Made by a program: the position numbers and the translations under genes. The notes under the pieces are model-generated. The model worked only from the letters and a program-made list of their open reading frames with translations, was not told where the DNA came from and searched no databases. A stretch of 64,000 nt of DNA from a virus. This document shows, one piece after another, positions 6,028-63,110 of the stretch; position 1 is the first letter of the stretch; every line of letters starts with the position of its first letter. Location: IMG/VR virus record IMGVR_UViG_3300034101_003081, positions 33,386 through 97,385 of that record; one strand, written 5' to 3'.

Positions 6028-6402
6028 TCAGCCCACGCCGGCGGGCAGAGGCTGCCAGTGCGTGGGCTGCGGCTTGAACGTCGCGAGCGAATCAGTCCTG
6101 ACGAACACGCCGTCCTCGCCGCAGCAGCCGACTGAGACGGCGTCTTTGACGCAGACTAGCACGGGTTCGTCGACGTCAGGGAGCCGAGACTTGGCCGCGA
6201 CCCACGGAGACTTGGACTTCTTTGGCTTTCGCTTCGGCGAATCGGACTCGACGAGCGTCATGCTCAGTTCAAGCCGCGACGTGCCTGAGTATTCCTGAGT
6301 CACGGATACGCCCGTGATCCACCCCGTGACGTTGTTGGGCAACGCCCCGCCGTACTGAGACGCGACATAGTCGAGGATCGCGGACGAGAGTTCTTCGTTC
6401 AT
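6028..6402 (-). CDS. DUF551-like phage protein
   Basis: W......RLP...PTHWQPLP signature. Confidence 0.6.
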   Translation of the reverse strand: MNEELSSAILDYVASQYGGALPNNVTGWITGVSVTQEYSGTSRLELSMTLVESDSPKRKPKKSKSPWVAAKSRLPDVDEPVLVCVKDAVSVGCCGEDGVFVRTDSLATFKPQPTHWQPLPAGVG

Positions 6403-8570: not shown

Positions 8571-9437
8571 ATGACTCTCAGCAAGTTCTTCGATGACTTC
8601 TACAGGCCTCTCAAGTTGCGAGGCCGTTCAGAAAACACGACAAGGCTCTACGCCAATACGCTGAAGCAGTTCGGCAAGTACCTCGGCCGGGCCGCCACGA
8701 TCGAAGACGATCTCAATGACCTCGCAATCTCGCGATACCTCTCGCATCGAGCGAGAGAGCGAAGCGTGTTCACAGCGGAGAAGGAGCGGTCGCAGTTGCT
8801 GGCCCTCTGGAGGTGTGCGGCGGATCGGCGGCTCATCGACATGCGGCCGTGCGTGCCTCCGACACCGATCCCGATTCGCGTGCCAACGGCCTGGAGCATC
8901 GACCAACTCAAGGCCCTGCTCGCGACGGCCAAAGTGATGAAGGGCAAAGTCGGCGACGTACCGGCGCACGTCTGGTGGACGGCGCTCATTCAAGTTCTCT
9001 GGCAGAGCGCAGAGAGAATTGGCGCGATCATGTCCGTGATGAAAGAGGACTACACGCGGCCTATCGTTCTCGTCCGCGCAGAGTGCCGCAAGGGAGGCAA
9101 GCGGGACAAACTCTACACGTTCACTGACCCCGTCTGCGACCTGCTCGACGTCTTGAAGAAGTCTGGCAACGGCCCGCAACTCTTTGCGTGGCCGAGAGGA
9201 TACGAATACCTGTGGAACAGGTTTGGCAAGATCGTCAAGGCAGCGGGACTCGAAGGCGGGCGTCGCAGCAAGTTTCATCAACTGCGGCGAAGTGCGGCGA
9301 CGCACTTCGCTGCCCGTGGTGGCGATCCGACTGCCCTGCTAGATCACAGTTCGCCTCGCGTCACGAAGGCGTACCTCGATCCGCGATTTATCGACACGGG
9401 GCCGAAGCCGTGCGAAGTCTTGCCTGGACTTGACTAG
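8571..9437 (+). CDS. int: Tyrosine recombinase/integrase
   Basis: Catalytic set ERIG (R), K in RKGGK, FHQLRR (HxxR), LDHSS (H), TKAY (Y). N-terminal SAM-like domain (RSENTTRLY). AAGGAG RBS. Confidence 0.9.
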   Translation: MTLSKFFDDFYRPLKLRGRSENTTRLYANTLKQFGKYLGRAATIEDDLNDLAISRYLSHRARERSVFTAEKERSQLLALWRCAADRRLIDMRPCVPPTPIPIRVPTAWSIDQLKALLATAKVMKGKVGDVPAHVWWTALIQVLWQSAERIGAIMSVMKEDYTRPIVLVRAECRKGGKRDKLYTFTDPVCDLLDVLKKSGNGPQLFAWPRGYEYLWNRFGKIVKAAGLEGGRRSKFHQLRRSAATHFAARGGDPTALLDHSSPRVTKAYLDPRFIDTGPKPCEVLPGLD

Positions 9438-33304: not shown

Positions 33305-35238
33305 CTCGACCGTTCCTTCAGGAAGGCCAGCGTTTCGCTGATGACTTCGCGAGAACGCTTCAACTCTTCGATGCTTCGCTTGGATGGCTTCTTTCCAAGC
33401 ACCTTCTCTGAAACAGACTTCTGGGCGGCAGAGATTTTCTTATTGATGGCAGTCTTGGCCTTGTAGGCAACCTTGCCGATCGCGCCCTTGGCTGCTCCAA
33501 CGACGCTCCCAGTGACGGCCCCTGCGGCAGCGCCGACGACGCCGCCTGCGACGACGCCAAGCCCGGCACCTATGGCAGCGCCCGCTGCTGCATTTCCGGA
33601 GACAGTCGGCTCGTTCGGGTCGACAGGAGTCTCTTCGGCGTCCTCTTTCTTTTTGGCCTTTTCCTTGCCGGCTCTCTTTGGAGACTTGCCGGCACTGCCT
33701 CCAGCGCCGCACGAGTTGTCGACGCCGCCTCCGGAGCCCGTGGCGCAGAACGCTCTCTCTTCAAGGAACTGCTTCGTCTTCGCCAACTCTTCAGCGGCCT
33801 TGGCCTTGGTCTTGTTACGGGCGTCAGCGTGTCCAGACTTCTGGGCCACGAACTGCTGGTAACTCCGCTTCGCAACGGCAACGGTGGCATCGCCATACGC
33901 CGGGTAGGTTACTGGACCGGCGTCCAGTAGAGACTTGATCTTCGTGACAAGCCTCGTAGACCGTCCGCCTTCGTAACTCCACTTCTCGCCGCCTTCTGCG
34001 ACCACGAAACTGAAACTTGAGCCACGCAAGTCTCCTCTCGAAATCGACTCGGCGATGTCCTGGCGAGACTCCGGAAGCAGGCACTCGTACCGCAAGCCCT
34101 TCTCGTCGACGGTCATCTTCATCGTCGTCGGGAATCGGCCCAGGAGGTGGTTGGGGTCGTGATTGAACAGGCAGCGGGTCTCTAGTGGCCTCCCCTCACT
34201 GTCCTCGCGGCTTTCGACAAGCGAGAACGCACCGGGGTCAATTCTCTCGACAAAATCCCCCAGAAGCAACGAATCTTTCCCAAATCGGGCCGCGTACCCG
34301 ACGATGTAGGTCTGCGGCTTGCCCGTGGTCTGATCAGCACGCTTTTCGACCCGGAGAAGTTCTGGGTCAGCCTTCTCGACGTTGCTGAAGTTGCCAAGAA
34401 ACCGACGCTCGACGTTGGGCAGCACTGGGGCACTCCTTTGCTCGGTGGCGAAATAACGCTCGACAGCCTCTCGCAATTCCTTCGCGACGGGCTGGCGTTC
34501 CGGGTCTTCCTCGATTCGCTTCAGGCACTCCTCTCTTGGAGTGTCGATGTGGATGTACTCGACCGGAATATCTGACAGTTGTCCCTTCATCTCGTCGCCG
34601 ATATTCGTGGCGATGATCCACGTCCTGTCGACCGACGGCTGACGAAGGGCCTTTTTGATGATAAGGGCTCTGATGTCCGTACAGTAAGAGATCAGGTTCT
34701 TGTTTTTCTGGTGCGGAGGGAGTCCAGACAGGGCGCTCATTACTTTGTCAAAGTCAAAGACAACGTCATTGTCGCCCTTGTTTTGCATCACGTAGGAAGT
34801 CTTGCCGCTGGCGGGGGCGCCGTGAACGACGAAGACCTTCGGCTTGATGCCTTGTGTTGAGCCAAAGGGCCGCAGCGACCGGCCCTCCGCTTCGTCAGCC
34901 GCGTTCATCTGCTCGACGACCTTGCGGGCATACGCCCACCCGGCGTCGGAGCCCCAAAGAGCCCAGGCGATTCTCCCGTTGGACGGGAAGCCGTCGTCGC
35001 CTGGCTCCCAACCCCGGCCTTTCTTGTCGATCTCGTGCCGATCGAAGTACGCCTTCATGCGACGCACTGTGGCCGGCGAGAGTTTCTTGCCGTTCGACAA
35101 GTCTCGGGCTCTCGCGATACCGACGGCGGTGCCGCCTCGGCCGTGTTCGCGACGCCAGGCGAGGCCCTTCTCGGCCTCCTCGCGGACGCCGTCGGGCGGG
35201 GTGAAGTCGATGTGGGAGTATTTTTCAGGGATTGCCAT
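33301..35238 (-). CDS. Multidomain HK97-type prohead protease
   Basis: Protease core IVGYAARF, FVERIDPGAF, LFNHD, GRF, DEKGL, G.SFSF, VTYPAY. Extra N-terminal domain (RRMKAYFDRH..IAWALWG), P-loop GAPASGKT and C-terminal Gly-zipper. Confidence 0.9.
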   Translation of the reverse strand: MAIPEKYSHIDFTPPDGVREEAEKGLAWRREHGRGGTAVGIARARDLSNGKKLSPATVRRMKAYFDRHEIDKKGRGWEPGDDGFPSNGRIAWALWGSDAGWAYARKVVEQMNAADEAEGRSLRPFGSTQGIKPKVFVVHGAPASGKTSYVMQNKGDNDVVFDFDKVMSALSGLPPHQKNKNLISYCTDIRALIIKKALRQPSVDRTWIIATNIGDEMKGQLSDIPVEYIHIDTPREECLKRIEEDPERQPVAKELREAVERYFATEQRSAPVLPNVERRFLGNFSNVEKADPELLRVEKRADQTTGKPQTYIVGYAARFGKDSLLLGDFVERIDPGAFSLVESREDSEGRPLETRCLFNHDPNHLLGRFPTTMKMTVDEKGLRYECLLPESRQDIAESISRGDLRGSSFSFVVAEGGEKWSYEGGRSTRLVTKIKSLLDAGPVTYPAYGDATVAVAKRSYQQFVAQKSGHADARNKTKAKAAEELAKTKQFLEERAFCATGSGGGVDNSCGAGGSAGKSPKRAGKEKAKKKEDAEETPVDPNEPTVSGNAAAGAAIGAGLGVVAGGVVGAAAGAVTGSVVGAAKGAIGKVAYKAKTAINKKISAAQKSVSEKVLGKKPSKRSIEELKRSREVISETLAFLKERSR

Positions 35239-53354: not shown

Positions 53355-53412
53355 GAAAGCACCTAACCACGCAATGCAGCGGTCGCGGGCCGCTGATCCT
53401 GCGTGTTCTGTG

Positions 53413-53667
53413 TCACCCAAGACGGCTCAACATGGCGTCGATGTGGTCGGCCATGAGTTCCATTTCCCTGCAATCGTCGTATGACGCCACCCGCTTTGCC
53501 GCCACACGGAGGGCGTTGGCCCCGCACTGCACTGCCCTCATCTCTTCTGCGGTGAACGACGAAGAATCAACAGGCTCGGAAAACGTAAGCCCGCAGCGAG
53601 GGCACGCGGCCGAAACGAATGGCGGTTCGCCGAGTATTTCATTAGACCGCTCATCAACGTCGCTCAT
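53413..53667 (-). CDS. Hypothetical protein
   Basis: 84 aa, GAGGGTG RBS, CPRCG; ends beside an attC-like site. Confidence 0.55.
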   Translation of the reverse strand: MSDVDERSNEILGEPPFVSAACPRCGLTFSEPVDSSSFTAEEMRAVQCGANALRVAAKRVASYDDCREMELMADHIDAMLSRLG

Positions 53668-53716
53668 TGAATCACCCTCCCTTTTTCGCGGATGCTGAAT
53701 GTCGCCCCTGCCACAC

Positions 53717-54043
53717 TCACGGGTCGTCGCGCCAGTCGCTCAGGTCGCAAAGCGGAAGGCGAATGCCGTACCCATTCTCTGCCGTCAGGTCTTCCGTCAC
53801 ACCGACGTCCCCGAACCTAGACACCATGACAAGTTTCACGGTGGCGCCAGCCGAAACGGGAATCTCCACTTCTTTCGTGTTGCGGAGGTGCCGCATGACC
53901 ACGTCACGCTTCAGTGTCGCGTACCTGTGCGGCCACGTTTCAGGCCTGTGTGGCATCCAGCCGCGAGACATGGCATGGTCTGCCCCAGCCAGAGCGAAGT
54001 GGTCTCGGTCGCCACCGTACTGCGATGTGGATGAATCACTCAT
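53717..54043 (-). CDS. Hypothetical protein
   Basis: VMVSRFGDVGVTEDL...GY..R; AGGAG RBS. Confidence 0.55.
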   Translation of the reverse strand: MSDSSTSQYGGDRDHFALAGADHAMSRGWMPHRPETWPHRYATLKRDVVMRHLRNTKEVEIPVSAGATVKLVMVSRFGDVGVTEDLTAENGYGIRLPLCDLSDWRDDP

Positions 54044-54074
54044 GCAATGCTCCTGATGTGTGTCTTTGCATGCG

Positions 54075-54446
54075 TCAGTCGAAGCCGCCAGAGTCGCAAG
54101 AACCGCTGTCGGCTGGCGGCTCGGGTAGCGGTGCCCAGTGTGTGATGCCAAATGAATCTACGTCGTCATCGTCCATATCGCAGAAACGCCACATGACGCC
54201 GTCGCGCGAAGCCATTTGAGCAAGTCGAATGTTTTCCGGAAAAGCCCTTGTGACAGCCAAGACGGTTGTATCCACTACTGGCAGCCGCTCGCCCACGGGT
54301 ATCCAGCGTCGCGCGTTCATGTCCTCGACCATCTCGTCAAGAAGTTCCCTCGAAATGACGGTCGCAGTGGCACCCTCGGGCCAGTGAACGGTCACGCGGC
54401 CGTCCTTATCGCGAGAGTACTCCACGTTGGGCACAAGGCCGATCAT
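54075..54446 (-). CDS. DUF551-like protein
   Basis: WIPVGERLP...ITHWAPLPEPP. Confidence 0.7.
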   Translation of the reverse strand: MIGLVPNVEYSRDKDGRVTVHWPEGATATVISRELLDEMVEDMNARRWIPVGERLPVVDTTVLAVTRAFPENIRLAQMASRDGVMWRFCDMDDDDVDSFGITHWAPLPEPPADSGSCDSGGFD

Positions 54447-54733
54447 CACGTCACCTCCGGCGGCTCTTTCGTCCAGACCTTCACGGGCAACTCCCCGATT
54501 CGTTTCGATGCGCCGCCGACCGTGAGGAACGCCCACACGAACAGCGTCGCCAGCCTCGCGGCCTGAAACACTGTCGCGTGCCGGCGAGCAACCATGAAAT
54601 GCGACCACCACAGCCAAGGCGTCGAAAGCACCTTCTTCCACTTCGGCTGTCTGCATAGCCTGACCATCTCGCGTGGCTCGCAATGCAGTCGCTTCCATTC
54701 GGAGTACAGCAACGAGACGTTGGGCTCGCCCAT
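54446..54733 (-). CDS. Hypothetical protein
   Basis: TGATG-coupled on both sides with GGAGGTG RBS. Confidence 0.55.
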   Translation of the reverse strand: MGEPNVSLLYSEWKRLHCEPREMVRLCRQPKWKKVLSTPWLWWSHFMVARRHATVFQAARLATLFVWAFLTVGGASKRIGELPVKVWTKEPPEVT

Positions 54734-55029
54734 CACTTCACCTCCGGCGGTGCGGGTAGCGGCATCCAATGTCGCGGCATCTCGTCTCCGTACTCGCTCG
54801 TCCAGAGGTTGTGGCCGTCTATCCGGTCCAACGTCGCCACGGTAATCATCCCGCCATTGCCGTCGCATCCGATGCAAGACGGCGTGCCGTTTTTGTCTAG
54901 GAACCGGAGGAACACCAGCACAGATTCGCCCGGCTCCGGCAACGCTTCCTCGACGGGAATCCACCGTCGCGCCCACTTGTGCGGCTTCGGTTCCATGGCG
55001 GCGATCTCCTGGTGCTTGAGGTGGCCCAT
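54733..55029 (-). CDS. DUF551-like protein
   Basis: WIPVEEALP...HWMPLPAPP. Confidence 0.7.
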   Translation of the reverse strand: MGHLKHQEIAAMEPKPHKWARRWIPVEEALPEPGESVLVFLRFLDKNGTPSCIGCDGNGGMITVATLDRIDGHNLWTSEYGDEMPRHWMPLPAPPEVK

Positions 55030-55502
55030 CACTTCATCTCCGGGGGTTCTGGCAGTTTCATCCAGTGGGTGATGCCTGGGTAAAGGTCGCTCTCTTGTGA
55101 CTCTCGCCATTCGCCGTTTCTGTATTCGCAGAGAACGTGTCCCTGCCACGGCTTTAGGCATTGGCCGCCGCCGTTCCACACCAATACTTCCTGATCCTCT
55201 TCCGGCAGCCGCTCGCCCACGGGAATCCAACGTCGTTCATTCCGTAGATGCTCGATCTCGTCTGCCGCGTGCGTGACGCAATAGTGCAGCAGCGAAGCCG
55301 AGTCGCCCGCCTGCGGCGACACTGCTGAGAACCCGACGCCGCGAAGCACTGTCACGATGTCCGTGATGTCTTCCCCGGCCCGCATCGTCTCGTCGTAGCC
55401 GCGACGCTCTTTCGCCAGGTCTGCCAGTTCGCACGCTGCTGCAATGGCGTCGTCGCCTCCGTTTCGGATTCGAGCGTCGAGTTCTTTCATGTAGCCGCTC
55501 AT
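55029..55502 (-). CDS. DUF551-like protein
   Basis: AADEIEHLR..WIPVGERLP...ITHWMKLPEPP. Confidence 0.7.
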   Translation of the reverse strand: MSGYMKELDARIRNGGDDAIAAACELADLAKERRGYDETMRAGEDITDIVTVLRGVGFSAVSPQAGDSASLLHYCVTHAADEIEHLRNERRWIPVGERLPEEDQEVLVWNGGGQCLKPWQGHVLCEYRNGEWRESQESDLYPGITHWMKLPEPPEMK

Positions 55503-55846
55503 CGAGAAACGTAGATGCTCGCCTTTGGGTACTTCTTGCAGGCCTCAAGATACTCGTGGCACCACTTCACGAATCCGTCAAAAGTTCCCCATCCGTTGCT
55601 GGGGTTAAAAGTCCGGTAGTGGTCTGGCCTGGCCTCCATGTCTGCCAGGCCAGCGGCCAGCGGCTCGACGATCTGCCTGGCCTCATTGATGCCGTGTTCG
55701 TCTGGGCGCCAGAGGCATTCGTAGATTCCAGCCTCCGAAGCCATCTCGTTCAGATTGTGGGTGATGTTGCCCGAGAAAACGACGTGAGACTCTGGATTGT
55801 CGTGACCAACATCGACTGGGAAGTACAGCGAAACATCAAGACTCAT
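55499..55846 (-). CDS. Conserved phage hypothetical protein
   Basis: NITHNL..MA..AGIY..LW.P...NP.NGWG. Confidence 0.65.
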   Translation of the reverse strand: MSLDVSLYFPVDVGHDNPESHVVFSGNITHNLNEMASEAGIYECLWRPDEHGINEARQIVEPLAAGLADMEARPDHYRTFNPSNGWGTFDGFVKWCHEYLEACKKYPKASIYVSR

Positions 55847-56102
55847 AGGCTTGGCCCATCCTGCTCAGCAGCCCCCGCAGTGTCTCTGGCACGGTGCCGA
55901 TGCCTTGCTTCTCGCACAATTCTGTGCAGAACACGATTGCCGCCCACTCTTCGTCGAGCAGCGTTCCGGACTGGTACAGTGGGGTGATCGTCGATCCGTG
56001 TGGCCTTTCTGCCGCTCTCTCTTCAGCCAACCCGCGAGAGAAGCAAAGGCTCCTGCCAAGTACCTGATGCTCGACGACATACGCTGTTGGCTCATTCATC
56101 AT
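55836..56102 (-). CDS. Hypothetical protein (EEREAI-module family, diverged)
   Basis: EP.AY...PLY...LDEEWAAI...TLRGLL.R. Confidence 0.55.
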   Translation of the reverse strand: MMNEPTAYVVEHQVLGRSLCFSRGLAEERAAERPHGSTITPLYQSGTLLDEEWAAIVFCTELCEKQGIGTVPETLRGLLSRMGQAYES

Positions 56103-56404
56103 GCCTCCTTCACGAACACGCCCTCCGGCGTGAGATAGCCACGCCGGTCTTTGATCGTCTCGTACGCTGACTCCAGGCTCCCGCGAATAGAGAGCCCAGA
56201 GAGTTGGGCATAGATAATCAGCGTCACCAGAACGTCACCAAGTCCGTCTACTTTCTCTGCGAGGTCGTTCTTGAGAGTAGCATCGGCGAGTTCCCCGAGT
56301 TCCGACATGGTCTTCATCAGTTGGGCCTGCGGCGTGCTGTTCGGCACGATCTTGCGGGCCGCCGCCCAGTCTTCGACAGCGAGAATCAGTTCATCAATAG
56401 TCAT
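56099..56404 (-). CDS. MazG-like nucleotide pyrophosphohydrolase
   Basis: Q..K..SELGELA...DGLGDVLVTL...AY.TIKDR.G....G.FVKE. Confidence 0.85.
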   Translation of the reverse strand: MTIDELILAVEDWAAARKIVPNSTPQAQLMKTMSELGELADATLKNDLAEKVDGLGDVLVTLIIYAQLSGLSIRGSLESAYETIKDRRGYLTPEGVFVKEA

Positions 56405-56573
56405 CGTCTTGCCTTTCTTTGGCTGAAGTAATCTGCTTCCGATGGTTGTGCTGCCGACCTCGCGAGCAGTATGGGCACGTCCCGCCAGGCCTGCACGTTC
56501 TGTCTACAGCAGCAGACTTGTGATACTGCCTGCGTTTTTCTTTTCCGTGCTGGATGGACTTGTCGAGGCTCAT
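56394..56573 (-). CDS. Small Cys-rich basic protein (59 aa, not in the ORF track)
   Basis: Manual translation MSLDKSIQHGKEKRRQY...DRTCRPGGTCPYC... Confidence 0.55.
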   Translation of the reverse strand: MSLDKSIQHGKEKRRQYHKSAAVDRTCRPGGTCPYCSRGRQHNHRKQITSAKERQDDDY

Positions 56574-56768
56574 GTCTTTATTGCGTGTCCAGACAAGGCA
56601 GCATGGCGATGATCTTCGTTGAGTGTCAAGCCGCTTTTTGACTGACGCGGCTCACTCACCACCCGCGTGTGGCCCGTTCGCCCCAGAACCACGCGATGCA
56701 GCGGACCCGCGATGCCGCTGCCGGTATGGTAACTCAGCGGTCGCGGGCCGCTGATCGCTGGCGTTCTC

Positions 56769-57062
56769 TCACTTACCCGACTCGTCATCTGCCGGTGGCG
56801 TGTACGGCACCAGTTCGATCTCGTTGAACGTGTCGATTTCCCGTACGTACCCCGCCGCCTCACCGAAGTACGCCCGCACCTTGTAGTGCAACTGCACGCC
56901 GCCGGGACACTCTTGGTACAGCCGCTCGATGATTTGCATGGCGGGAGTGCCTCGCTCGCGAGTAAAGAATCCCTTCTGCTTGCCAAAGCCTAGCGTCACC
57001 GAAATCGGCTGAACGAAGTCGCCAACCTTGAACTTGAAATGCTCGTACTGCGGACTTGCCAT
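56769..57062 (-). CDS. Cassette ORF, hypothetical (FKVGD SH3-like start)
   Basis: Fills the space between two attC-like sites; AAGGAGA RBS. Confidence 0.65.
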   Translation of the reverse strand: MASPQYEHFKFKVGDFVQPISVTLGFGKQKGFFTRERGTPAMQIIERLYQECPGGVQLHYKVRAYFGEAAGYVREIDTFNEIELVPYTPPADDESGK

Positions 57063-57161
57063 GTCGTCTCCTTACAAGAGAACCACGCGATGCAGCGGAC
57101 CCGCGATGCCGTCTGCCGGTATGGTAAGTCAGCGGTCGCGGGCCGCTGATCGCAAGCGTTC

Positions 57162-57545
57162 TCATGCTAGCCGCTCAATCAGTCCCCTGAGCGTGCAGGC
57201 GGCAGCGGCATCCATCGGTCCAGCATCCGCTGAAACGTCCTCTACGCCAACAAGGGAGTCGATGCCACGCTCAATCGCCTCCCGCTCCTCGTCGGTGAGC
57301 CGCAGTCTTGCAAGCCTCTCCTCTGCCTCTGTCAAGAGGCCGTGTAGCCACTGGAGGCTCCCTCGCTGCTGCTCAATCTCATCGACAGCCCACCGAACAA
57401 TGTCGCTCGCCTCAACTCGGTCGCCACTGTCCGGGTCGCCCAGCCCCATGCCACGCACGCCGTCGATCAGCGTGCGAAGGACCGAAAGCGTGTCGCCGTG
57501 AGAACCACGCGATGCAGCGGACATCTCATCTACCTCGTTTGTCAT
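57162..57545 (-). CDS. Cassette ORF starting inside an attC-like site (EEREAI family)
   Basis: MTNEVDEMSAASRGS leader; LTDEEREAIE. Confidence 0.65.
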   Translation of the reverse strand: MTNEVDEMSAASRGSHGDTLSVLRTLIDGVRGMGLGDPDSGDRVEASDIVRWAVDEIEQQRGSLQWLHGLLTEAEERLARLRLTDEEREAIERGIDSLVGVEDVSADAGPMDAAAACTLRGLIERLA

Positions 57546-57584
57546 GGTTGCTCCTGTGTTCGATGCCGCTGATCGCTGGTGTTC

Positions 57585-57926
57585 TCACTTCGTCCGCTCA
57601 AGCAGTGCGCGGAGCGTAGCCCTGCGGTCAGGGCGTGGCGTGCCGTCGTATTCGGTGTATGGGCCGTCGGGCAAAAACGGGATGGCAATCTCAATCGCCT
57701 CCCGCTCCTCGTCGGTGAGCGTGGGGGCAAAATACAACGGTGCGAGCGGCAGTGGTCGGTTGGTTTCGCCAAAAAGGCACTCTCTTGCGAGACTCATGGC
57801 CTCGTCCTTCTGGTGGTCCGCGAATGCCTCATAGACCGACAGATCGCCCGGCGGGCCGTCAGTCACCGCCCACGCCACCGGCTGAGAACCAGCCGATGCA
57901 ACAGACCGCTCATTTTCGTCGTTCAT
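57585..57926 (-). CDS. Cassette ORF starting inside an attC-like site (EEREAI family)
   Basis: MNDENERSVASAGS leader; AAGGAGG RBS inside the site. Confidence 0.65.
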   Translation of the reverse strand: MNDENERSVASAGSQPVAWAVTDGPPGDLSVYEAFADHQKDEAMSLARECLFGETNRPLPLAPLYFAPTLTDEEREAIEIAIPFLPDGPYTEYDGTPRPDRRATLRALLERTK

Positions 57927-57974
57927 AGTTGCCGCCTCCTTTGTTCGCGGCTGTTGATCGTTCACGTTCTGTGG

Positions 57975-58394
57975 CTAACCGTTCTCTGCGAAAGATTCCG
58001 CCGCCATAGCGTCCAGCATCCGTCTGCGTGTGGTCGCGTCCGAGACGGATGCCGCAATCTCCATCAAGGCCGCCGCCGTCTTTCGCAGTTCGACCAGTTC
58101 CGCATCTCGCTCGGCAACCTGCTTTTGCAGCCACGCCTCGCATGTACGCAAGGCGTCTCTCTCTTGAGCCACCTTCACCAACTGATGCTCTAGCAAGTCG
58201 CCAGCCGCAAGCAGCAGGCTTTCCTTTTTCCGCAGCCGCTCTATCTCTTGTGCAGCCTCGTCCATCATCTCTCCAGGCGTTGGGTAGCCGCGCTCGTCTC
58301 TCCATGCCGCTAGTTGCGAGGCCACGCTATTCGCCACAGAACCAGCGGATGCAAGAGACGGCTCGGCCGCGTCTCGCGTGTTGTCATCGCTCAT
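57975..58394 (-). CDS. Cassette ORF starting inside an attC-like site, coiled-coil
   Basis: MSDDNTRDAAEPSLASAGS leader; EAAQEIERLR. Confidence 0.65.
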   Translation of the reverse strand: MSDDNTRDAAEPSLASAGSVANSVASQLAAWRDERGYPTPGEMMDEAAQEIERLRKKESLLLAAGDLLEHQLVKVAQERDALRTCEAWLQKQVAERDAELVELRKTAAALMEIAASVSDATTRRRMLDAMAAESFAENG

Positions 58395-58421
58395 AGTTCG
58401 CCGCTCCTGATCCGTGTCGTT

Positions 58422-58589
58422 CTACCTCTCGCCACCACCACTTGCTTCTGCCTCCACTTGCGGGGCAGGCTCGGAATGCGTTGCCGACCGCCTGTACCCA
58501 GCCGTCGCCAGAGAGAACGCCAAGATCACAACGAACAGAACCCCAAAAGCGGCGTTGAAATCGTCATCCGGCGTTACTGGGCAGACCAT
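58422..58589 (-). CDS. Cassette ORF, small membrane protein
   Basis: Hydrophobic stretch AAFGVLFVVILAFSLA; GAGG RBS. Confidence 0.5.
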   Translation of the reverse strand: MVCPVTPDDDFNAAFGVLFVVILAFSLATAGYRRSATHSEPAPQVEAEASGGGER

Positions 58590-58663
58590 CGTTTTCCTCT
58601 CTTGTGAATCCGGTAGAACCACGCAATCCAGCGGACGGGCCGCTGATCGCTGGTGTTCTGTGG

Positions 58664-58858
58664 CTACTTGCCGTCCGATGGCGGGGCCGGGAGCGACATC
58701 CAGTGGGTGACGTTGCTGGTGATTCGGATGCTTCCTTCCCAAAACTCACCCTCCCAACGCACGGCGACGCGGCACTCGCGGCCATTCTTGTGCCAGACAA
58801 GGCACTGTACATCGTCGTCCGGAAGCCGCTCCGTCACCGGAATCCACTCCCCGCTCAT
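58664..58858 (-). CDS. Cassette ORF, DUF551-like
   Basis: MSGEWIPVTERLP...VTHWMSLPAPP. Confidence 0.7.
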   Translation of the reverse strand: MSGEWIPVTERLPDDDVQCLVWHKNGRECRVAVRWEGEFWEGSIRITSNVTHWMSLPAPPSDGK

Positions 58859-58950
58859 ATTCGTAATCCGTCGCTTTCCGTTGGTTTTCAAATACGTTCG
58901 GTTCGCCGCAGAACCACGCGATGCAGCGGACGAGCCGCTGATCGCTGGCG

Positions 58951-59232
58951 TTATCTGGAAATCGAAACCATGATTCGGCCATCCTTACTCGTGACCGTAC
59001 ATGACGCCCTAAGAGTCCGAATGCCGTCAAGGGTTTCGGCCTCATACTGAACGCCTTCGACTTGAAACGTCACGCGGTAGCCGCCCCAAATCCCGTCATA
59101 GGTTCCATCGGGGATGCGATCTACGCTTTCAATCCGCCTTAGTTTCCCAGCGAGTGTCGCCATTCCGGCCTCCAGATAACCAGCGGATGCAGGAGACGGC
59201 TCGGCACCGTCCTGCGTGTTATCGTCGCTCAT
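58951..59232 (-). CDS. Cassette ORF starting inside an attC-like site
   Basis: MSDDNTQDGAEPSPASAGY leader; the stop codon lies within the GTTA of the neighbouring site. Confidence 0.65.
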   Translation of the reverse strand: MSDDNTQDGAEPSPASAGYLEAGMATLAGKLRRIESVDRIPDGTYDGIWGGYRVTFQVEGVQYEAETLDGIRTLRASCTVTSKDGRIMVSISR

Positions 59233-59265
59233 AGTTCGCCGCTCCTGATCCTGCGTGTTCTGTGG

Positions 59266-59454
59266 CTACTTGCCGCTCAACTGCCTCGCCACAGAAATCT
59301 GCACTGACTGCCACCACGCAACCGAAACAGCGTCTCCGTGCAAGGACCGCGCATTTGCTTGTGGGCATGGAGGCAAGTCAGCAGGCCAGAGGCCGCGACG
59401 GCCGTTCGGCACAGAACCAGCCGATGCAACAGACCGCTCGTCAGTGTCGCTCAT
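59266..59454 (-). CDS. Cassette ORF starting inside an attC-like site
   Basis: MSDTDERSVASAGS leader. Confidence 0.5.
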   Translation of the reverse strand: MSDTDERSVASAGSVPNGRRGLWPADLPPCPQANARSLHGDAVSVAWWQSVQISVARQLSGK

Positions 59455-59494
59455 GTGCGCCGCCTCCTTTGTTCGCGGCTGTTGATCGTTCACG

Positions 59495-59767
59495 TTATGC
59501 TACAGTTGGCCCGGCTATCGTCGTTCCAGTTACGGCCGCGTCAATTACTACCCGCATCGCCTTTGCCAGCATCCAGCAGTGCCACCCGGCCCCTTCCTTT
59601 GTCTTGCAATCCGCCACCTTGAAATGCTGCGGCCCGATGGTCAGCCACGCGGAATGCGCGTCGGGCCAATCTTCGTCGATGGCCTTCGTCACCCGCGTGT
59701 ACCTCTCAGCCAAAGCCCAGTCTCGGGCGGTCGCTTCCGTTGGCAGTTCAGGCATCATCCAGTTCAT
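59495..59767 (-). CDS. Cassette ORF, hypothetical
   Basis: Spans from one site's R'' box to the neighbouring site's R' box. Confidence 0.6.
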   Translation of the reverse strand: MNWMMPELPTEATARDWALAERYTRVTKAIDEDWPDAHSAWLTIGPQHFKVADCKTKEGAGWHCWMLAKAMRVVIDAAVTGTTIAGPTVA

Positions 59768-59858
59768 GGCATAACCACGCGATGCAGCGGACCCGCGATG
59801 CCGTCTGCCGGAATGGTAAGTCAGCGGTCGCGGGCCGCTGATCGCAAGCGTTATGCCA

Positions 59859-60092
59859 CTACCGCAGCGCCGGTGTCTTTGGAGCCGCCAAGTCGCTCAC
59901 ATACAAGGCGTAATCGACGCCCTGCCGCGTGCCGACTCGGTTGATGAATCCCGTCAGGATGGTGTCGATTACATCCTGCGGCGGGCATTCCGTGACAGTG
60001 TGCATATGAGCATTTCGCTGGTAGTGGTCAGCGTCATTGCGGAAGTCTCGGGCGATGTCAGTGAGCATTTGCAGCAGTTCGATCTTCGTCAT
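59859..60092 (-). CDS. Cassette ORF, hypothetical
   Basis: AAGGAGA RBS; fills the cassette. Confidence 0.6.
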   Translation of the reverse strand: MTKIELLQMLTDIARDFRNDADHYQRNAHMHTVTECPPQDVIDTILTGFINRVGTRQGVDYALYVSDLAAPKTPALR

Positions 60093-60162
60093 GTCTGTCT
60101 CCTTCGTTGAAAAAGCATAACCACGCGATGCAGCGGACGAGCCGCTGATCGCTGGCGTTCTC

Positions 60163-60426
60163 TTATTTCTTGCTCGCCCGTTGGGCAGCCCTGCGGCACT
60201 TCGGACACTCGTATGTCACGCCGTCCGACCAGTAGCGGGAAAAAAACGCCACCATGTCTGGCGACATCGGCTTCTTCAACTTGCCGACTCCGTTCGTCAG
60301 CACCTCTGTCCGCTCGTAGCCGCACGGCCACCGATAGGTGACGTTGCTGCCGTCGCGAGCCACAACGCGGGCGCGGTGGCCGTACATCCCGCACTGCGTC
60401 AGCGGCTTTTTGATTGTGTTTGCCAT
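60163..60426 (-). CDS. Cassette ORF, Zn-ribbon-like protein
   Basis: C...GH, WPCG, CPKC. Leaderless start behind TGGACA-17-TACCAT. Confidence 0.55.
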   Translation of the reverse strand: MANTIKKPLTQCGMYGHRARVVARDGSNVTYRWPCGYERTEVLTNGVGKLKKPMSPDMVAFFSRYWSDGVTYECPKCRRAAQRASKK

Positions 60427-60466
60427 GCCCATATGGTATCCAGTCGGATACAGGCTGTCCAGCGGT

Positions 60467-60652
60467 TTAGTTTTTCTCGCCTTTCCCGTAGTTTTCCGCA
60501 TCCGACCGCCTGACGAAGTTCTGGCCGTCGATCCTGACGCCGGGCAGGCGGCCCTGTGAGATGAGCCGGTTGATGTAGGCCCGCGTGACGCCTGCCATCT
60601 TTGCGGCGGTGCCGACGCGAACGTATTCATCGGGGTCGATTTTTTTTGCCAT
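60467..60652 (-). CDS. Cassette ORF, HTH_17/excisionase-like DNA-binding protein
   Basis: TAAKMAGVTRAYINRLISQGRLPGVRIDG. Leaderless start behind TACAAT. Confidence 0.75.
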   Translation of the reverse strand: MAKKIDPDEYVRVGTAAKMAGVTRAYINRLISQGRLPGVRIDGQNFVRRSDAENYGKGEKN

Positions 60653-60731
60653 GCCAGCATTGTAGCCAATCGGATAGCGACGAGAGAGAACCAAGCGATG
60701 CAGCGGACAGAGCCGCTGATCGCAAGCGTTC

Positions 60732-61082
60732 TCACTTTGTCCGCTCAAGCAGTGCGCGGAGCGTAGCCCTGCGGTCAGGGCGTGGCGTCCCGTCGTATTC
60801 GGTGTATGGGCCGTCGGGCAGAAACGGGATGGCAATCTCAATCGCCCCCCGCTCCTCGGCGGTGAGCGTAGGCTGCGGGTTGCGGTAGAGCGGGACGACC
60901 TGCGCCATCCCGACAACCGCACCTTGGGCGTCCTGCCGATGGTACGCCAGCCACAGCGGCACGCCGTTCTTTCCGACCGCTGCCCAGGCTACAGGCACGC
61001 CGTTCCATCGCGATGCCGACCCGTGAGAACCAGCGGATGCAAGAGACGGCTCGGCCGCGTCATGCGTGTTGTCAGTGTTCAT
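60732..61082 (-). CDS. Cassette ORF starting inside an attC-like site (EEREAI family)
   Basis: MNTDNTHDAAEPSLASAGS leader; 3' end nearly identical to 57585-57720. Confidence 0.65.
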   Translation of the reverse strand: MNTDNTHDAAEPSLASAGSHGSASRWNGVPVAWAAVGKNGVPLWLAYHRQDAQGAVVGMAQVVPLYRNPQPTLTAEERGAIEIAIPFLPDGPYTEYDGTPRPDRRATLRALLERTK

Positions 61083-61110
61083 AGTTCGCCGCTCCTGATC
61101 CGTGTCGTTC

Positions 61111-61407
61111 TCAACCTATCCGTTCCAGCATGGCCCGCAACGCAACCGCCCGCTTTCCGTCCTCAACGTGGCCCATCTGCGTTGCGCCTTGCTCGTAGAT
61201 CATGGCCGCAACCTCAATCGCCTCCCGCTCCTCGTCGGTGAGCGTGCTATCCATCGTCACAGTCACGTTGCCGTCGCACACCGACAGCGTGGCGTCCTGA
61301 TCCGCGAGTCGGCGGATGGCCTCGCGCAGCCGTTCGATCTCGGCCCGCTGATCCTGCATGATCTGATCCGCCTGCTCCCATGACATGATGCCCGCATCAG
61401 GACTCAT
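61111..61407 (-). CDS. Hypothetical protein (EEREAI family)
   Basis: EIERLR...LTDEEREAIE...ALRAMLER. Confidence 0.6.
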   Translation of the reverse strand: MSPDAGIMSWEQADQIMQDQRAEIERLREAIRRLADQDATLSVCDGNVTVTMDSTLTDEEREAIEVAAMIYEQGATQMGHVEDGKRAVALRAMLERIG

Positions 61408-61649
61408 TTCGTCCGCTCCAGTAGGCCGCGAAGCGCCACCACTCTGCCGGGCTCAGGCCCGCCGTACCACTCGGCGTCCAACTCTCTCCCGATGGCAATC
61501 TCAATCGCCTCCCGCTCCTCGTCGGTGAGCCGCAGTCGCTCAATCGCGTCGGCCGCCTCTGTGATGCACTGCACGGCGATCCCGTCCTCGCAATGGATGT
61601 CGCGAGCGAGGACACGCAAGGCCCGAACAAGTGTGGCGGTGTCGCTCAT
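61404..61649 (-). CDS. Hypothetical protein (EEREAI family)
   Basis: EAADAIERLRLTDEEREAIE...LRGLLERTK. Confidence 0.6.
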   Translation of the reverse strand: MSDTATLVRALRVLARDIHCEDGIAVQCITEAADAIERLRLTDEEREAIEIAIGRELDAEWYGGPEPGRVVALRGLLERTK

Positions 61650-62518
61650 TTCGTCCTCGCCAGTAGCCCAAGCAACTGCTCTCGTATCCACTGCGCCCGG
61701 CCGCCAGGGTCTGGGTGGTAGAGGTGATCGTAGGCGGCCAACTCAATCGCCTCGCACTCCTCTGCGGTGATCGCGGGCTGGCGGTAGAGCGGGACGATAC
61801 CGTGATTCCCGGTTACTGCCTCGTCAATCGCCTTGGCGTCCTCTTCGATGGCATAGACATCGTAGATGCGTTCACCGCCCGCGAGCATGACAGCCCACGC
61901 AACTGGCTCCTGTGTATCTCGCCCCCGCCCACCCGCTGCGTGATCCCTTGTCGGGGCGCCCGCGTCTAGGGGCCGCCACTCGTCGCTGCCGACGCGCTGC
62001 GTTGCGGCGGCTGGTGGCACACACTTGCGCGACGAGTCGCGATCTGTCTCCACGCATGGTGGAGCAGTCTGATTGCCGGTGCCCGCATCGCTCTCGCGAC
62101 TCCGACAGGCGGCATGATCCGCCTCCGGCAACTGGGCTCTCGCCGCCGGCGCGGCGTCATGATTTGATTTGGCGTCGATGCGACGGCGGTAGGCGTGCTC
62201 GTCTTCACACGGCCGCCCCAGCAACTGAGATTTGCGCCATCCGCCGTCACTCCCGATGTATTCGTCTCCAGCCATCAGGGCCTCGTCAGCCTCCACCCAC
62301 CGCCAGCCCTCGCCCGGCGAATCATTGTCCTCGCCTGCCGATTTGCCGGCACCGGACAATCGCTCCAACGCCGCCACTCGCCGCTCAAGATTCGCGTTGG
62401 CGAGTTTGGCCCGCAGGGACGCGATCTCGTCGGCGGCCTCGCGAATCGCAGGCCTGGCAGCCAAAAACGTGGTGTTTTCAGCCAGATACTCAAGTCTCTG
62501 AACGATGTCTTGGCTCAT
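61646..62518 (-). CDS. Mosaic hypothetical protein (EEREAI family)
   Basis: EAADEIASLR, EPVAWAV...VPLYRQP.ITAEECEAIE...LLARTK. Confidence 0.55.
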   Translation of the reverse strand: MSQDIVQRLEYLAENTTFLAARPAIREAADEIASLRAKLANANLERRVAALERLSGAGKSAGEDNDSPGEGWRWVEADEALMAGDEYIGSDGGWRKSQLLGRPCEDEHAYRRRIDAKSNHDAAPAARAQLPEADHAACRSRESDAGTGNQTAPPCVETDRDSSRKCVPPAAATQRVGSDEWRPLDAGAPTRDHAAGGRGRDTQEPVAWAVMLAGGERIYDVYAIEEDAKAIDEAVTGNHGIVPLYRQPAITAEECEAIELAAYDHLYHPDPGGRAQWIREQLLGLLARTK

Positions 62519-62732
62519 ATCTCTCGTACCACTCGTTGACGGCAGCCGCATCGAACGAGTCTTTGTCTCCAAGGTCGTGCGGGTGTGGGAAGTGCCGCAG
62601 AACTCGCCTCGCCTCTTCGCGAACCTCGCGGCGTATCCCCTTGATTCCGCCCTCGGCATAGACGTTCGAGAGCCGCAGGAGAAAGTCCTGGGCCCGAATC
62701 ACGGCCCAGGTTCGCTCATTGGGGAGAGTCAT
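62490..62732 (-). CDS. BPSL0761-like phage protein
   Basis: MTLP.ERT.AV.....FL..L...VREEAR..LRHFP. Confidence 0.65.
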   Translation of the reverse strand: MTLPNERTWAVIRAQDFLLRLSNVYAEGGIKGIRREVREEARRVLRHFPHPHDLGDKDSFDAAAVNEWYERYEPRHRSET

Positions 62733-62786
62733 GCGGCGGTGTCCTTATCCAGACAAAGCCGCATGGTAGTGACGCCGGAGTGCGAG

Positions 62787-63110
62787 TCAAGCGGGTTTTG
62801 CTCCCTGCCGCCTCTCTAAGTATCTCGCCGCGTCTTCTCGCACATGCGGGTTTGATATCGTCCACGAAAGCAGGTGCCCGAAAACGAAGTGGCACGGCTC
62901 GCCGCACAGCGTGACAAGATTTCCTGGGTCAAGTTCCCGAGACGAGTCTTGGCTCACCGGGACAACGTGATGGACTTCTAGAGACTTGCCCCGCCCGCAG
63001 GCGATGCACGCTGGCTCCCTGGCGAGATGATCTCGACGAACGCGAGGCCACGAGCCTGACCTTGGAGAGCCGAACGACTCGACGGTGGCTCGCAGCCAGC
63101 GGAGGAGCAT
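62787..63110 (-). CDS. HNH endonuclease
   Basis: W..VR..HL...P.C..CG....LEVHH..P......ELD..NL.TLC...CH. Confidence 0.85.
   Translation of the reverse strand: MLLRWLRATVESFGSPRSGSWPRVRRDHLAREPACIACGRGKSLEVHHVVPVSQDSSRELDPGNLVTLCGEPCHFVFGHLLSWTISNPHVREDAARYLERRQGAKPA

Follow-up and report, generated by a model that had tools for sequence, protein, structure and literature searches.

The window analysed here, a stretch of 64,000 nt (positions 33,386 to 97,385) of the 97,385-bp phage record IMGVR_UViG_3300034101_003081, contained 14 integron-type attC sites at positions 53365–61111, all in one orientation and, according to a scan of the whole 97-kb record, confined to this region (Table 1). The left-arm pattern gave 14 matches against 0.89 expected by chance. 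The attC top strand was the plus strand at all 14 sites, and the genes of the array were all on the minus strand, i.e., the attC bottom strand.

Table 1. Features of the attC array and its surroundings (positions in the window)
Feature	Position	Strand	Remarks
attC array	53365–61111		14 sites; CALIN (no integron integrase in the record)
Outermost attC site	53365–53407	−	43 nt; CTAAC...GTTCT
Relic of type-C site	53413–53700	−	SD, ATG and MSDVDERS codons kept; L''/R'' arm lost
ORF	53413–53667	−	84 aa; still headed by the decayed type-C relic
Two attC sites	56687–56765, 57081–57160	−	Long self-paired loop, no ATG
Gene	56769–57062	−	Own AAGGAGA and ATG, 17 nt past site 57081–57160
attC site, leader type A	57503–57583	−	81 nt (AAC to GTT); SD AGGAG 57551–57555 and ATG 57543–57545, both in variable loop
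ORF	57162–57545	−	127 aa, begins MTNEVDEMSAASRGS; headed by site 57503–57583
attC site, type C	57887–57968	−	82 nt; SD AAGGAGG 57935–57941, ATG 57924–57926
ORF	57585–57926	−	113 aa, begins MNDENERSVASAGS; headed by site 57887–57968
attC site, type B	58340–58421	−	82 nt; SD AGGAG 58404–58408 within L-box stem, ATG 58392–58394
ORF	57975–58394	−	139 aa; headed by site 58340–58421
Two short attC sites	58617–58657, 58912–58952	−	41 nt; genes after both with own starts
Small membrane protein; DUF551 gene	58422–58590; 58664–58858	−	After the two 41-nt sites
attC site, type B	59178–59259	−	82 nt; SD 59242–59246 in stem, ATG 59230–59232
ORF	58951–59232	−	93 aa; headed by site 59178–59259; TAA stop takes TT from GTT of next site
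attC site, type C	59415–59496	−	82 nt; SD 59463–59469, ATG 59452–59454
ORF	59266–59454	−	62 aa; headed by site 59415–59496; body without support as a protein
Three attC sites	59773–59852, 60119–60159, 60689–60730	−	No loop ATG; starts of following genes 5–40 nt past site
Genes	59495–59767, 59859–60092, 60467–60652 (HTH_17) then 60163–60426	−	Follow the three ATG-less sites
attC site, type B	61028–61109	−	82 nt; SD 61092–61096 in stem, ATG 61080–61082
ORF	60732–61082	−	116 aa; headed by site 61028–61109
Three overlapping genes upstream of array	61111–62659	−	LTDEEREAIE/PVAWA family; no attC between

Six of the sites carried start signals on the minus strand, either AGGAG or AAAGGAGG, located 5–9 nt before an ATG in the loop. 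The six sites lay where the initial annotation had placed them, and the six ORFs read through the 3' arm (L'', R'') into different bodies of 62–139 aa, with the leaders as quoted there. In these six genes the hairpin provides the ribosome-binding site and start codon as well as the first 14–19 amino acids, the loop itself holding the SD, the ATG and 7–12 codons. All six ATGs had one phase relative to the site end, where ...GGT TCT encodes G-S (...S-A-x-S-x-G-S). The two stops previously read in or next to the R' box were real (TAA at 58951–58953 and 59495–59497, consisting of the TT of GTT plus A), and three more stops overlapped a box: TGA-GAAC at 57585 and 61111, and TAG-AAC at 58422.

The attC boxes R'' and R' are inverted, with conserved 5'-AAC ... 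GTT-3' and the consensus RYYYAAC/GTTRRRY. AAC...GTT was present at all 14 sites, extended to AGAAC or ATAAC and to GTTCT or GTTAT, which fits the 7-mer consensus only partly. The minus-strand 3' arm of all types was composed of T, 6 bp, C, 5 bp, spacer and GTT, giving two extrahelical bases, a proximal (L-box) C and a distal T, separated by a 6-bp stem; such extrahelical-base features are what defines the attC bottom strand (PMC5027507). The L-box base was C instead of the usual G, as it also was in the integrase-linked sites of the bacterial genome described below, the unpaired central spacer had 3 nt against 4–5 nt (usually 5–6), and the variable loop ranged from about 5 to about 45 nt. The AAC-to-GTT length was either 41–43 or 79–82 nt, with the short class just under the published 57–141 bp. 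Compensatory changes kept the arms paired in three types in the window and in a fourth in L200; the arm pairs were GCGAT(G)CAGCGG/CCGCTGATCGC, CCGAT(G)CAACAG/CTGTTGATCG and CGGAT(G)CAGGAG/CTCCTGATCCG, with GCATTGAGCAG/CTGCT(C)CAATGC as a further one. The repeats of the window have the full attC architecture, despite these departures from the textbook form.

A search of the whole 97,385-bp record gave no match to TIGR02249, so that the intI beside the array that marks a complete integron was absent, and IntI scored above the cut-off in 0 of 28 other array-bearing viral records. A phage tyrosine recombinase at 8571–9437 was rejected as a candidate, being Xer-like, far below every NCBIfam cut-off and 44 kb away from the array. 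Since no integrase was found in these phages, recombination in them had to be deduced from comparative breakpoints only. A true IntI (TIGR02249, 454 bits at a cut-off of 265) was present in the Planctomycetaceae MAG G001, where it was followed by six sites of the phage arm family; the site family is linked to an integrase by this association only. The cassette genes of this MAG (PemK, DUF4345, DUF2442) were on the top strand, which is the canonical polarity, while those of the window were all on the bottom strand. The same difference was seen in the positions of an SD with a start codon after the sites: for viral short sites 42/49 on the bottom and 5/49 on the top strand, for the MAG sites 0/23 and 8/23, respectively. 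Since cassettes bordered by this arm family have the normal orientation beside a true IntI, it is the phage arrays that are inverted: the bottom strand, which is expected to fold and recombine, is the coding strand, and the cassettes are therefore back to front in comparison with bacterial integrons. This brings the attC to the 5' end of the gene and, as a consequence, roughly half of the long sites now use their variable loop as a translation-initiation region. The phage host was probably a member of the Planctomycetota.

Regulation of initiation by hairpin folding, which the initial annotation had also suggested, is only predicted. In the RNA fold models, the SD was buried in the stem at three of the six sites, all of type B; the probability of the SD being unpaired was 0.93 at the type-A site 57503–57583 and 0.02 at the type-B site 58340–58421. 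In type B, the buried SD would be freed by a ribosome terminating at the base of the hairpin, where the stop codon lies (translational coupling).

The start signals were not peculiar to the window. A loop SD with an ATG was conserved at 71 non-redundant sites from other viral contigs, with the same phase in 70 of them, and the ORFs opened there reached 252 aa. The proposed search for the leaders in protein databases was likewise positive: independent gene calls begin with them, while in homologues that are not part of a cassette the conserved PVAWA is directly preceded by a short N-terminus of their own. Loop starts and genes with their own starts showed a complementary distribution, an own SD and start following 55/64 short sites (without a loop ATG) against 10/66 loop-start sites. 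In AlphaFold2 models residues 1–21 had a pLDDT below 50 and 10-residue blocks beginning at residue 31 averaged 79–92 through to the C-terminus; the leader, in all cases acidic at first and Ser-, Ala- and Gly-rich thereafter, is modeled as an unstructured N-terminal extension. If translation instead began beyond the sites, the SD and ATG of the loop would represent a short upstream frame or a by-product of loop constraints. The 10 units mentioned, which had a second SD and start no more than 75 nt away, are in line with this, as are the weak period-3 signal of the loop codons and the MNWMMPELP family, whose body has its own ATG and also follows a site lacking a loop start, so that the loop ATG may be optional there. 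However, such a downstream start is very improbable considering the nearly universal phase, the lack of an alternative SD and start in 56/66 units, the loop-ATG frame staying open for at least 30 codons past the site in 66 of the units scored, the beginning of the conserved body domain 1–10 residues past the leader junction, and the retention of the SD-spacer-ATG arrangement in no fewer than five unrelated loop sequences. The comparison of these sequences supports the loop ATG and SD as conserved and used as gene starts.

Cassette mobility was evident from L050 and L057, in which 100% identical units, each consisting of a body and its start-side site, were re-ordered with breakpoints inside GTTCT(C), exactly at G↓TTCT (arrow, crossover point); this alignment places the crossover at G↓TT of R'. 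Such breakpoints make a start-bearing attC and its body one cassette and, since the canonical crossover (G↓TT, plus strand) is upstream of the SD, the two normally travel together. The family is very abundant (at least 119 stretches in an IMG/VR scan with an 18-mer), and phages of 35–154 kb have cassettes in common. Across contigs, the R' side was unlinked in 16/35 pairs and the R'' side in 9/48 (roughly 5–9/48 when counted as crossovers), those at R' being about four times more frequent. The rarer swaps at R'' (gene-sense TGGTT↓CT), which canonical bottom-strand recombination does not explain, placed different leader types on one body, always in frame because the phase is universal. The precision of these junctions between different arm types, at least five leader classes on one body family in the protein database and the relic leader joined at 53667 to another body would all suit free-standing portable modules, chiefly making new genes from adjoining DNA, with leaders and bodies normally coming from different cassettes. 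This is rather unlikely in view of the fourfold excess of crossovers at the other box and the movement of identical cassettes as body plus start-side site, and none of the leaders was seen joined to non-genic DNA. The 'portable start module' of the initial annotation is partly supported and has to be modified: the starts are indeed conserved, fused to many bodies and swapped at R'', but the cassette normally moves the attC together with its own body, so the attC does not routinely turn adjacent DNA into genes. It is also improbable that the phage repeats no longer recombine and are kept as mRNA hairpins (operators, processing, stability) combined with a shared N-terminal tag, for example for targeting or packaging. 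While the lack of IntI in 29 viral records, the stable predicted RNA hairpins (−33 to −40 kcal/mol) with the buried type-B SD and the common composition of the leaders would agree with such a role, the arms covary, keeping the pairing while the peptide changes (SAASRGS, PASAGS, SVASAGS, APMLGS), the short sites encode nothing, and the extrahelical-base geometry is kept. Moreover, the re-ordering of identical cassettes at G↓TT suggests that recombination postdates any divergence of the copies, and the cassettes are common to phages of 35–154 kb.

The best explanation, with a probability of roughly 0.8, is that the region is an inverted integron-type cassette array of an integrase-less phage, whose attC loops double as gene starts. 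It is carried by the attC architecture, inverted polarity, G↓TT crossover, conserved starts in one phase, their complementary distribution and R'' reassortment, all of them demonstrated. Each cassette consists, in this order, of TTCT (often with the stop codon), the gene body and its own attC. The host IntI would do the recombining; the array, together with the three genes upstream of it, would be read as one minus-strand operon, and translation in vivo would begin at the loop ATGs.

In the usual description of an integron cassette, a gene lacking a promoter has its attC behind it, the latter being treated as a recombination site that at most hinders ribosomes. In the inverted toxin-antitoxin cassettes of sedentary chromosomal integrons the genes reportedly run opposite to the array, as exceptions with their own promoters, while in the phage inversion extends to the entire array, which is promoter-less and takes its gene starts from the attC. 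The PeSL 'mobile regulatory cassettes' of T4-type phages, reportedly described by Arbiol, Comeau and Krisch in 2010 as a promoter plus a stem-loop, are said to lie between small accessory phage genes, to carry expression signals and to be shuffled as modules via homologous recombination. The phage attC sites resemble them as repeated structured elements with expression signals and shuffling between small accessory genes, but PeSLs are not attC-like and do not encode an N-terminus. With integron attC arrays the phage sites share folded imperfect palindromes, R and L boxes, an unpaired spacer, extrahelical bases and a variable loop, and with integron attC and phage CALINs one small gene per unit, the G↓TT crossover, the absence of a phage integrase and R-box stops. 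Qi et al. (2023; PMC9892861) reported phages that carry integron cassette arrays, integrase-less CALINs among them. In contrast to these, the genes of the present array are on the bottom strand, the attC precedes the gene, and its loop contains SD, ATG and initial codons; section 3.4 of that paper, on CALINs, does not mention bottom-strand genes or loop starts. A site with its own SD and ATG is represented by ORF-11/ORF-18 in attI1 (Hanau-Bercot et al., 2002, reviewed in PMC8876359), which span the crossover point and help cassettes without an initiation region. However, ORF-11 is a short separate peptide of the attI platform, acts by termination-reinitiation and serves the first cassette only, while in the phage each cassette brings its own start within attC, in frame with the cassette protein, which the loop ATG itself opens. 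Jacquier et al. (2009, reviewed in PMC8876359) described short ORFs within attC that lower the barrier posed to ribosomes by the hairpin. These are similar as a translated frame affecting expression of the next gene, but they belong to the top strand, follow the gene of their own cassette and stop short of the next one, without forming the N-terminus of a protein. The attC-as-gene-start design was not found in the literature searched.

This arrangement gives attC a second role, as a 5' untranslated region, initiation region and N-terminal coding sequence, in arrays of completely reversed polarity. The ACID procedure allows an ORF-attC overlap of 15 bp (PMC2674596), and annotation pipelines barring overlap beyond a few bases will mis-call these genes. 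A broader view, in which phages of integron-bearing hosts keep their own inverted cassette pool and borrow the host IntI, is tentative at best: attC would be a universal in-frame 5' gene module and R'' recombination (on the 'wrong' strand) would act like exon shuffling, putting any start module before any body, and may give birth to cassettes from phage gene fragments. If true, phage cassettes captured by a host integron would be antisense and hence silent. With respect to gene exchange, unrelated phages of 35–154 kb have one cassette pool, which would depend on the host enzyme. Finally, the fixed in-frame junction combined with leader-body swaps offers a concrete route, open to testing, by which new cassettes and chimeric proteins could arise, which bears on the origin of cassettes.

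The 97,385-bp virus record, whose right-hand 64 kb make up the window, had a CheckV completeness of 99% and contained an imperfect palindrome in 14 copies, each in the same orientation, between 53365 and 61111, with none elsewhere in the record (the left-arm pattern gave 14 matches against 0.89 expected). Every copy folded into an AAC/GTT box, an unpaired spacer of 3/4 nt, an L-box stem and a variable loop, and the pairing was kept by compensatory changes across four arm sequences, three from the window and one from locus L200. In the 3' arm of the - strand, two extrahelical bases were present, T and, after 6 bp, C, which by the criterion of Nivina et al. identifies the coding - strand as the attC bottom strand. 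End-pairing of the R' extension with the R'' extension of the next site fitted all three T-variant cases (GTTAT followed by ATAAC), and was dropped as an orientation test because both polarities predict the same result. The gaps between the sites were filled exactly by genes, every credible one on the - strand, with stop codons in or adjoining the box on one side and starts inside or just past the site on the other.

Features of the attC array and associated loci (window coordinates)
Feature	Position	Strand	Remarks
Xer-like tyrosine recombinase	8571-9437	+	288 aa; below every NCBIfam cut-off, not IntI-like
attC sites, 41-43 nt (AAC to GTT)			five sites
attC sites, 79-80 nt (AAC to GTT)			three sites; self-paired loop
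attC sites, 81-82 nt (AAC to GTT)	57503 (type A); 57887, 59415 (type C); 58340, 59178, 61028 (type B)	-	six sites; types refer to leader and loop
Decayed type C site	53667		L''/R'' arm gone
Site without loop start	59773		precedes the MNWMMPELP body
Stop TGA-GAAC overlapping box	57162, 57585, 61111	-
Stop TAG-AAC overlapping box	58422	-
Stop TAA in ATAAC	58951, 59495	-
Stretch between two sites	53408-56686		3.3 kb
Short cassette	59260-59496		237 bp
LTDEEREAIE-encoding repeat	57264-61850	-	27 nt, eight copies
Duplicated block	57565-57725, 60712-60872		161 nt, 94% identity
Sigma-70-like promoter	62763-62790	-	consensus match only
Terminator-like hairpin	62687-62710	-	consensus match only

The initial annotation had described recombination sites that carry a ribosome binding site, a start codon and a shared leader, and all of these elements were indeed present at the six 81-82-nt sites: on the - strand, AGGAG or AAGGAGG was followed after 5-9 nt by an ATG in the loop, and the ORF opened there crossed the 3' arm to enter a body 62-139 aa long. 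The phase of the ATG relative to the site end was the same for all six, so that the arm was always read as ...S-A-(A)-S-x-G-S. The conservation on which that reading depended was also found, since at least 71 non-redundant sites possessed both a Shine-Dalgarno sequence (SD) and the ATG, with 70 of the 71 sharing one phase, while the SD, the spacer and the ATG remained invariant in five or more loop sequences unrelated to one another (types A-E). Among the matches listed, a gene equipped with an SD and start of its own, no more than 75 nt away, followed 55 of 64 short sites as against 10 of 66 loop-start sites; the two classes of site are thus complementary in the distribution of own gene starts. 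At the decayed type C site, the SD, the ATG and an ORF of 84 aa were retained.

In the best-sampled body the conserved domain started 1-10 residues past the junction. AlphaFold2 modeling with a 37-sequence alignment assigned residues 1-21 a pLDDT under 50 and, averaged in blocks of 10 residues from position 31 to the C-terminus, values of 79-92; the model fits a passive, disordered leader. Variability with a period of three in the loop codons was a weak signal from too few independent sequences. Searches of Pfam and PHROGs assigned none of the six leader-bearing proteins to a family, and the AlphaFold2 model of the 116-aa protein had no Foldseek match in the PDB with E <= 0.001. A further 82-nt site type, with a self-paired loop and ATG(ACC)ATG as a candidate start, had no recognisable SD (for example, at 6292, 5794 and 3491 on the site strand of viral loci L036, L074 and L021, respectively, in locus coordinates); its reading phase differed (MTMNKPTDALAGPLHRVV...) and led into ORFs 86-199 aa long, and several such sites also had an ATG directly after GTT as an alternative candidate start.

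At each of the six sites, RNA folding placed the AUG in the loop. The SD was predicted to be open in types A and C (unpaired probability 0.59-0.93), while at the three type B sites it lay within the L-box stem (0.00-0.02). The upstream stop codon in type B was located on the hairpin base or 7 nt before it, and a terminating ribosome could open the stem, which would result in translational coupling.

Comparison of viral loci L050 and L057 revealed three units, each composed of a body and its start-side site, that were 100% identical and differed in order, with the identity ending within GTTCT(C), at the 3' terminus of the sites on the top strand, i.e., at the canonical G|TT point. Among pairs linked across contigs by 50-nt body ends at least 94% identical, the stop-side site (R' side) was unrelated in 16 of 35 and the start-holding site (R'' side) in 9 of 48, some of the latter being 1-nt offsets. 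Together, these breakpoints and linkages indicate that a start-bearing attC and its body form one cassette. Exchanges at R'' were nevertheless seen: loci L008 (type C) and L047 (type B) had the same body with identity starting exactly at TGGTTCT, a pattern repeated between L036 and L050, and the MNWMMPELP body, located behind a site without loop start in the window, was joined in frame to a type A start site in L001, L057 and L099. Proteins of a single body family (...PVAWAAVGKNGVPMWLAYHRQDAEG...) occurred in the protein database with at least five leader classes, as well as with seven N-termini that attC does not encode. Such swaps might have arisen either by top-strand recombination through an integron integrase (IntI) or by microhomology-based events, both being candidate mechanisms. 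The mechanism proposed initially, portable start modules turning adjacent DNA into an expressed gene, was therefore partly right: leaders are occasionally swapped at R'', but the site does not routinely act on the DNA of a neighbor, as attC and body belong to the same cassette.

Several other features of the array region were recorded. The 3.3-kb stretch between two sites, which contains roughly nine genes (DUF551 paralogues, MazG) along with a relic site, has the appearance of several cassettes that became fused following site decay; four of its genes had the start region CCGCCGGAGGTGAnnTGATG in common. The 237-bp cassette contained a 62-aa ORF with a proper type C start, whose body had no homologues and no family, and it may be gene-less or decaying. 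The LTDEEREAIE-encoding repeat (78-100% identical) sat in paralogous small genes inside and outside cassettes, and the duplicated block denotes mosaic cassettes, two of them having a common C-terminal half and a differing N-terminal half. A promoter and terminator scan found no recurrent signal inside the sites; the sole sigma-70-like match (TTGACT-16-TACCAT), by consensus only, was upstream of the putative operon entering the array and adjoined the terminator-like hairpin.

An 18-mer scan of IMG/VR found at least 119 stretches, and the site survey covered, among the matches listed, 236 full sites in the window and 116 of 182 fetched loci, with the same discrete size classes as in the window. 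The exact left-arm 18-mer also had 63 matches in genome contigs, many from Planctomycetota MAGs. In a Planctomycetaceae MAG (contig C19 of G001), an IntI (TIGR02249, 454 bits; cut-off 265) was followed by six sites of the same arm family, the cassette genes (PemK toxin, DUF4345 and DUF2442) were on the top strand, and their stops adjoined R'', one being the TAA inside GGCTAAC, which is a textbook integron layout. In this locus (L192, 6103-6753), intI was transcribed towards the cassette array, not away from it, and a small two-gene pair occupied the first cassette, ahead of the first attC. Since a longest-ORF comparison of strands was uninformative at 60% G+C, an SD-plus-start test was used in its place: among the matches listed, an SD plus a start came after viral short sites in 42 of 49 cases on the bottom strand and in 5 of 49 on the top strand; for the MAG sites the corresponding numbers were 0 of 23 and 8 of 23. 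The phage arrays are inverted.

An IntI above the cut-off was absent from this record and from 28 further viral records with arrays (35-154 kb, ten of them with a completeness of 90% or more), and the arrays are therefore CALINs, which Qi et al. (2023; PMC9892861) already report in phages. Of 28 viral records bearing arrays, 18 contained matches to the Xer-like recombinase (E <= 0.001), including 9 of the 10 with at least 90% completeness; about nine of the matches had 38-56% identity over the full length and the rest 25-34%. Its role as the array enzyme was unsupported, given its dissimilarity to IntI and its distance of 13-54 kb from the array in the window and five other records checked; lysogeny, dimer resolution and cassette recombination are candidate functions.

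The nearest translation-related features in known systems are ORF-11 and ORF-18 in attI1 and the short attC ORFs that ease ribosome passage through hairpins (reviewed in PMC8876359); in contrast to the leaders fused to bodies here, these are short, free-standing peptides encoded by the top strand. The literature searched contained phage CALINs, ORF-11 and attC short ORFs, with no account of attC-loop starts or wholly inverted arrays. The start signals inside attC loops are real and widespread, and the arrays carrying them are best classed with integron cassettes and phage CALINs, as a variant.
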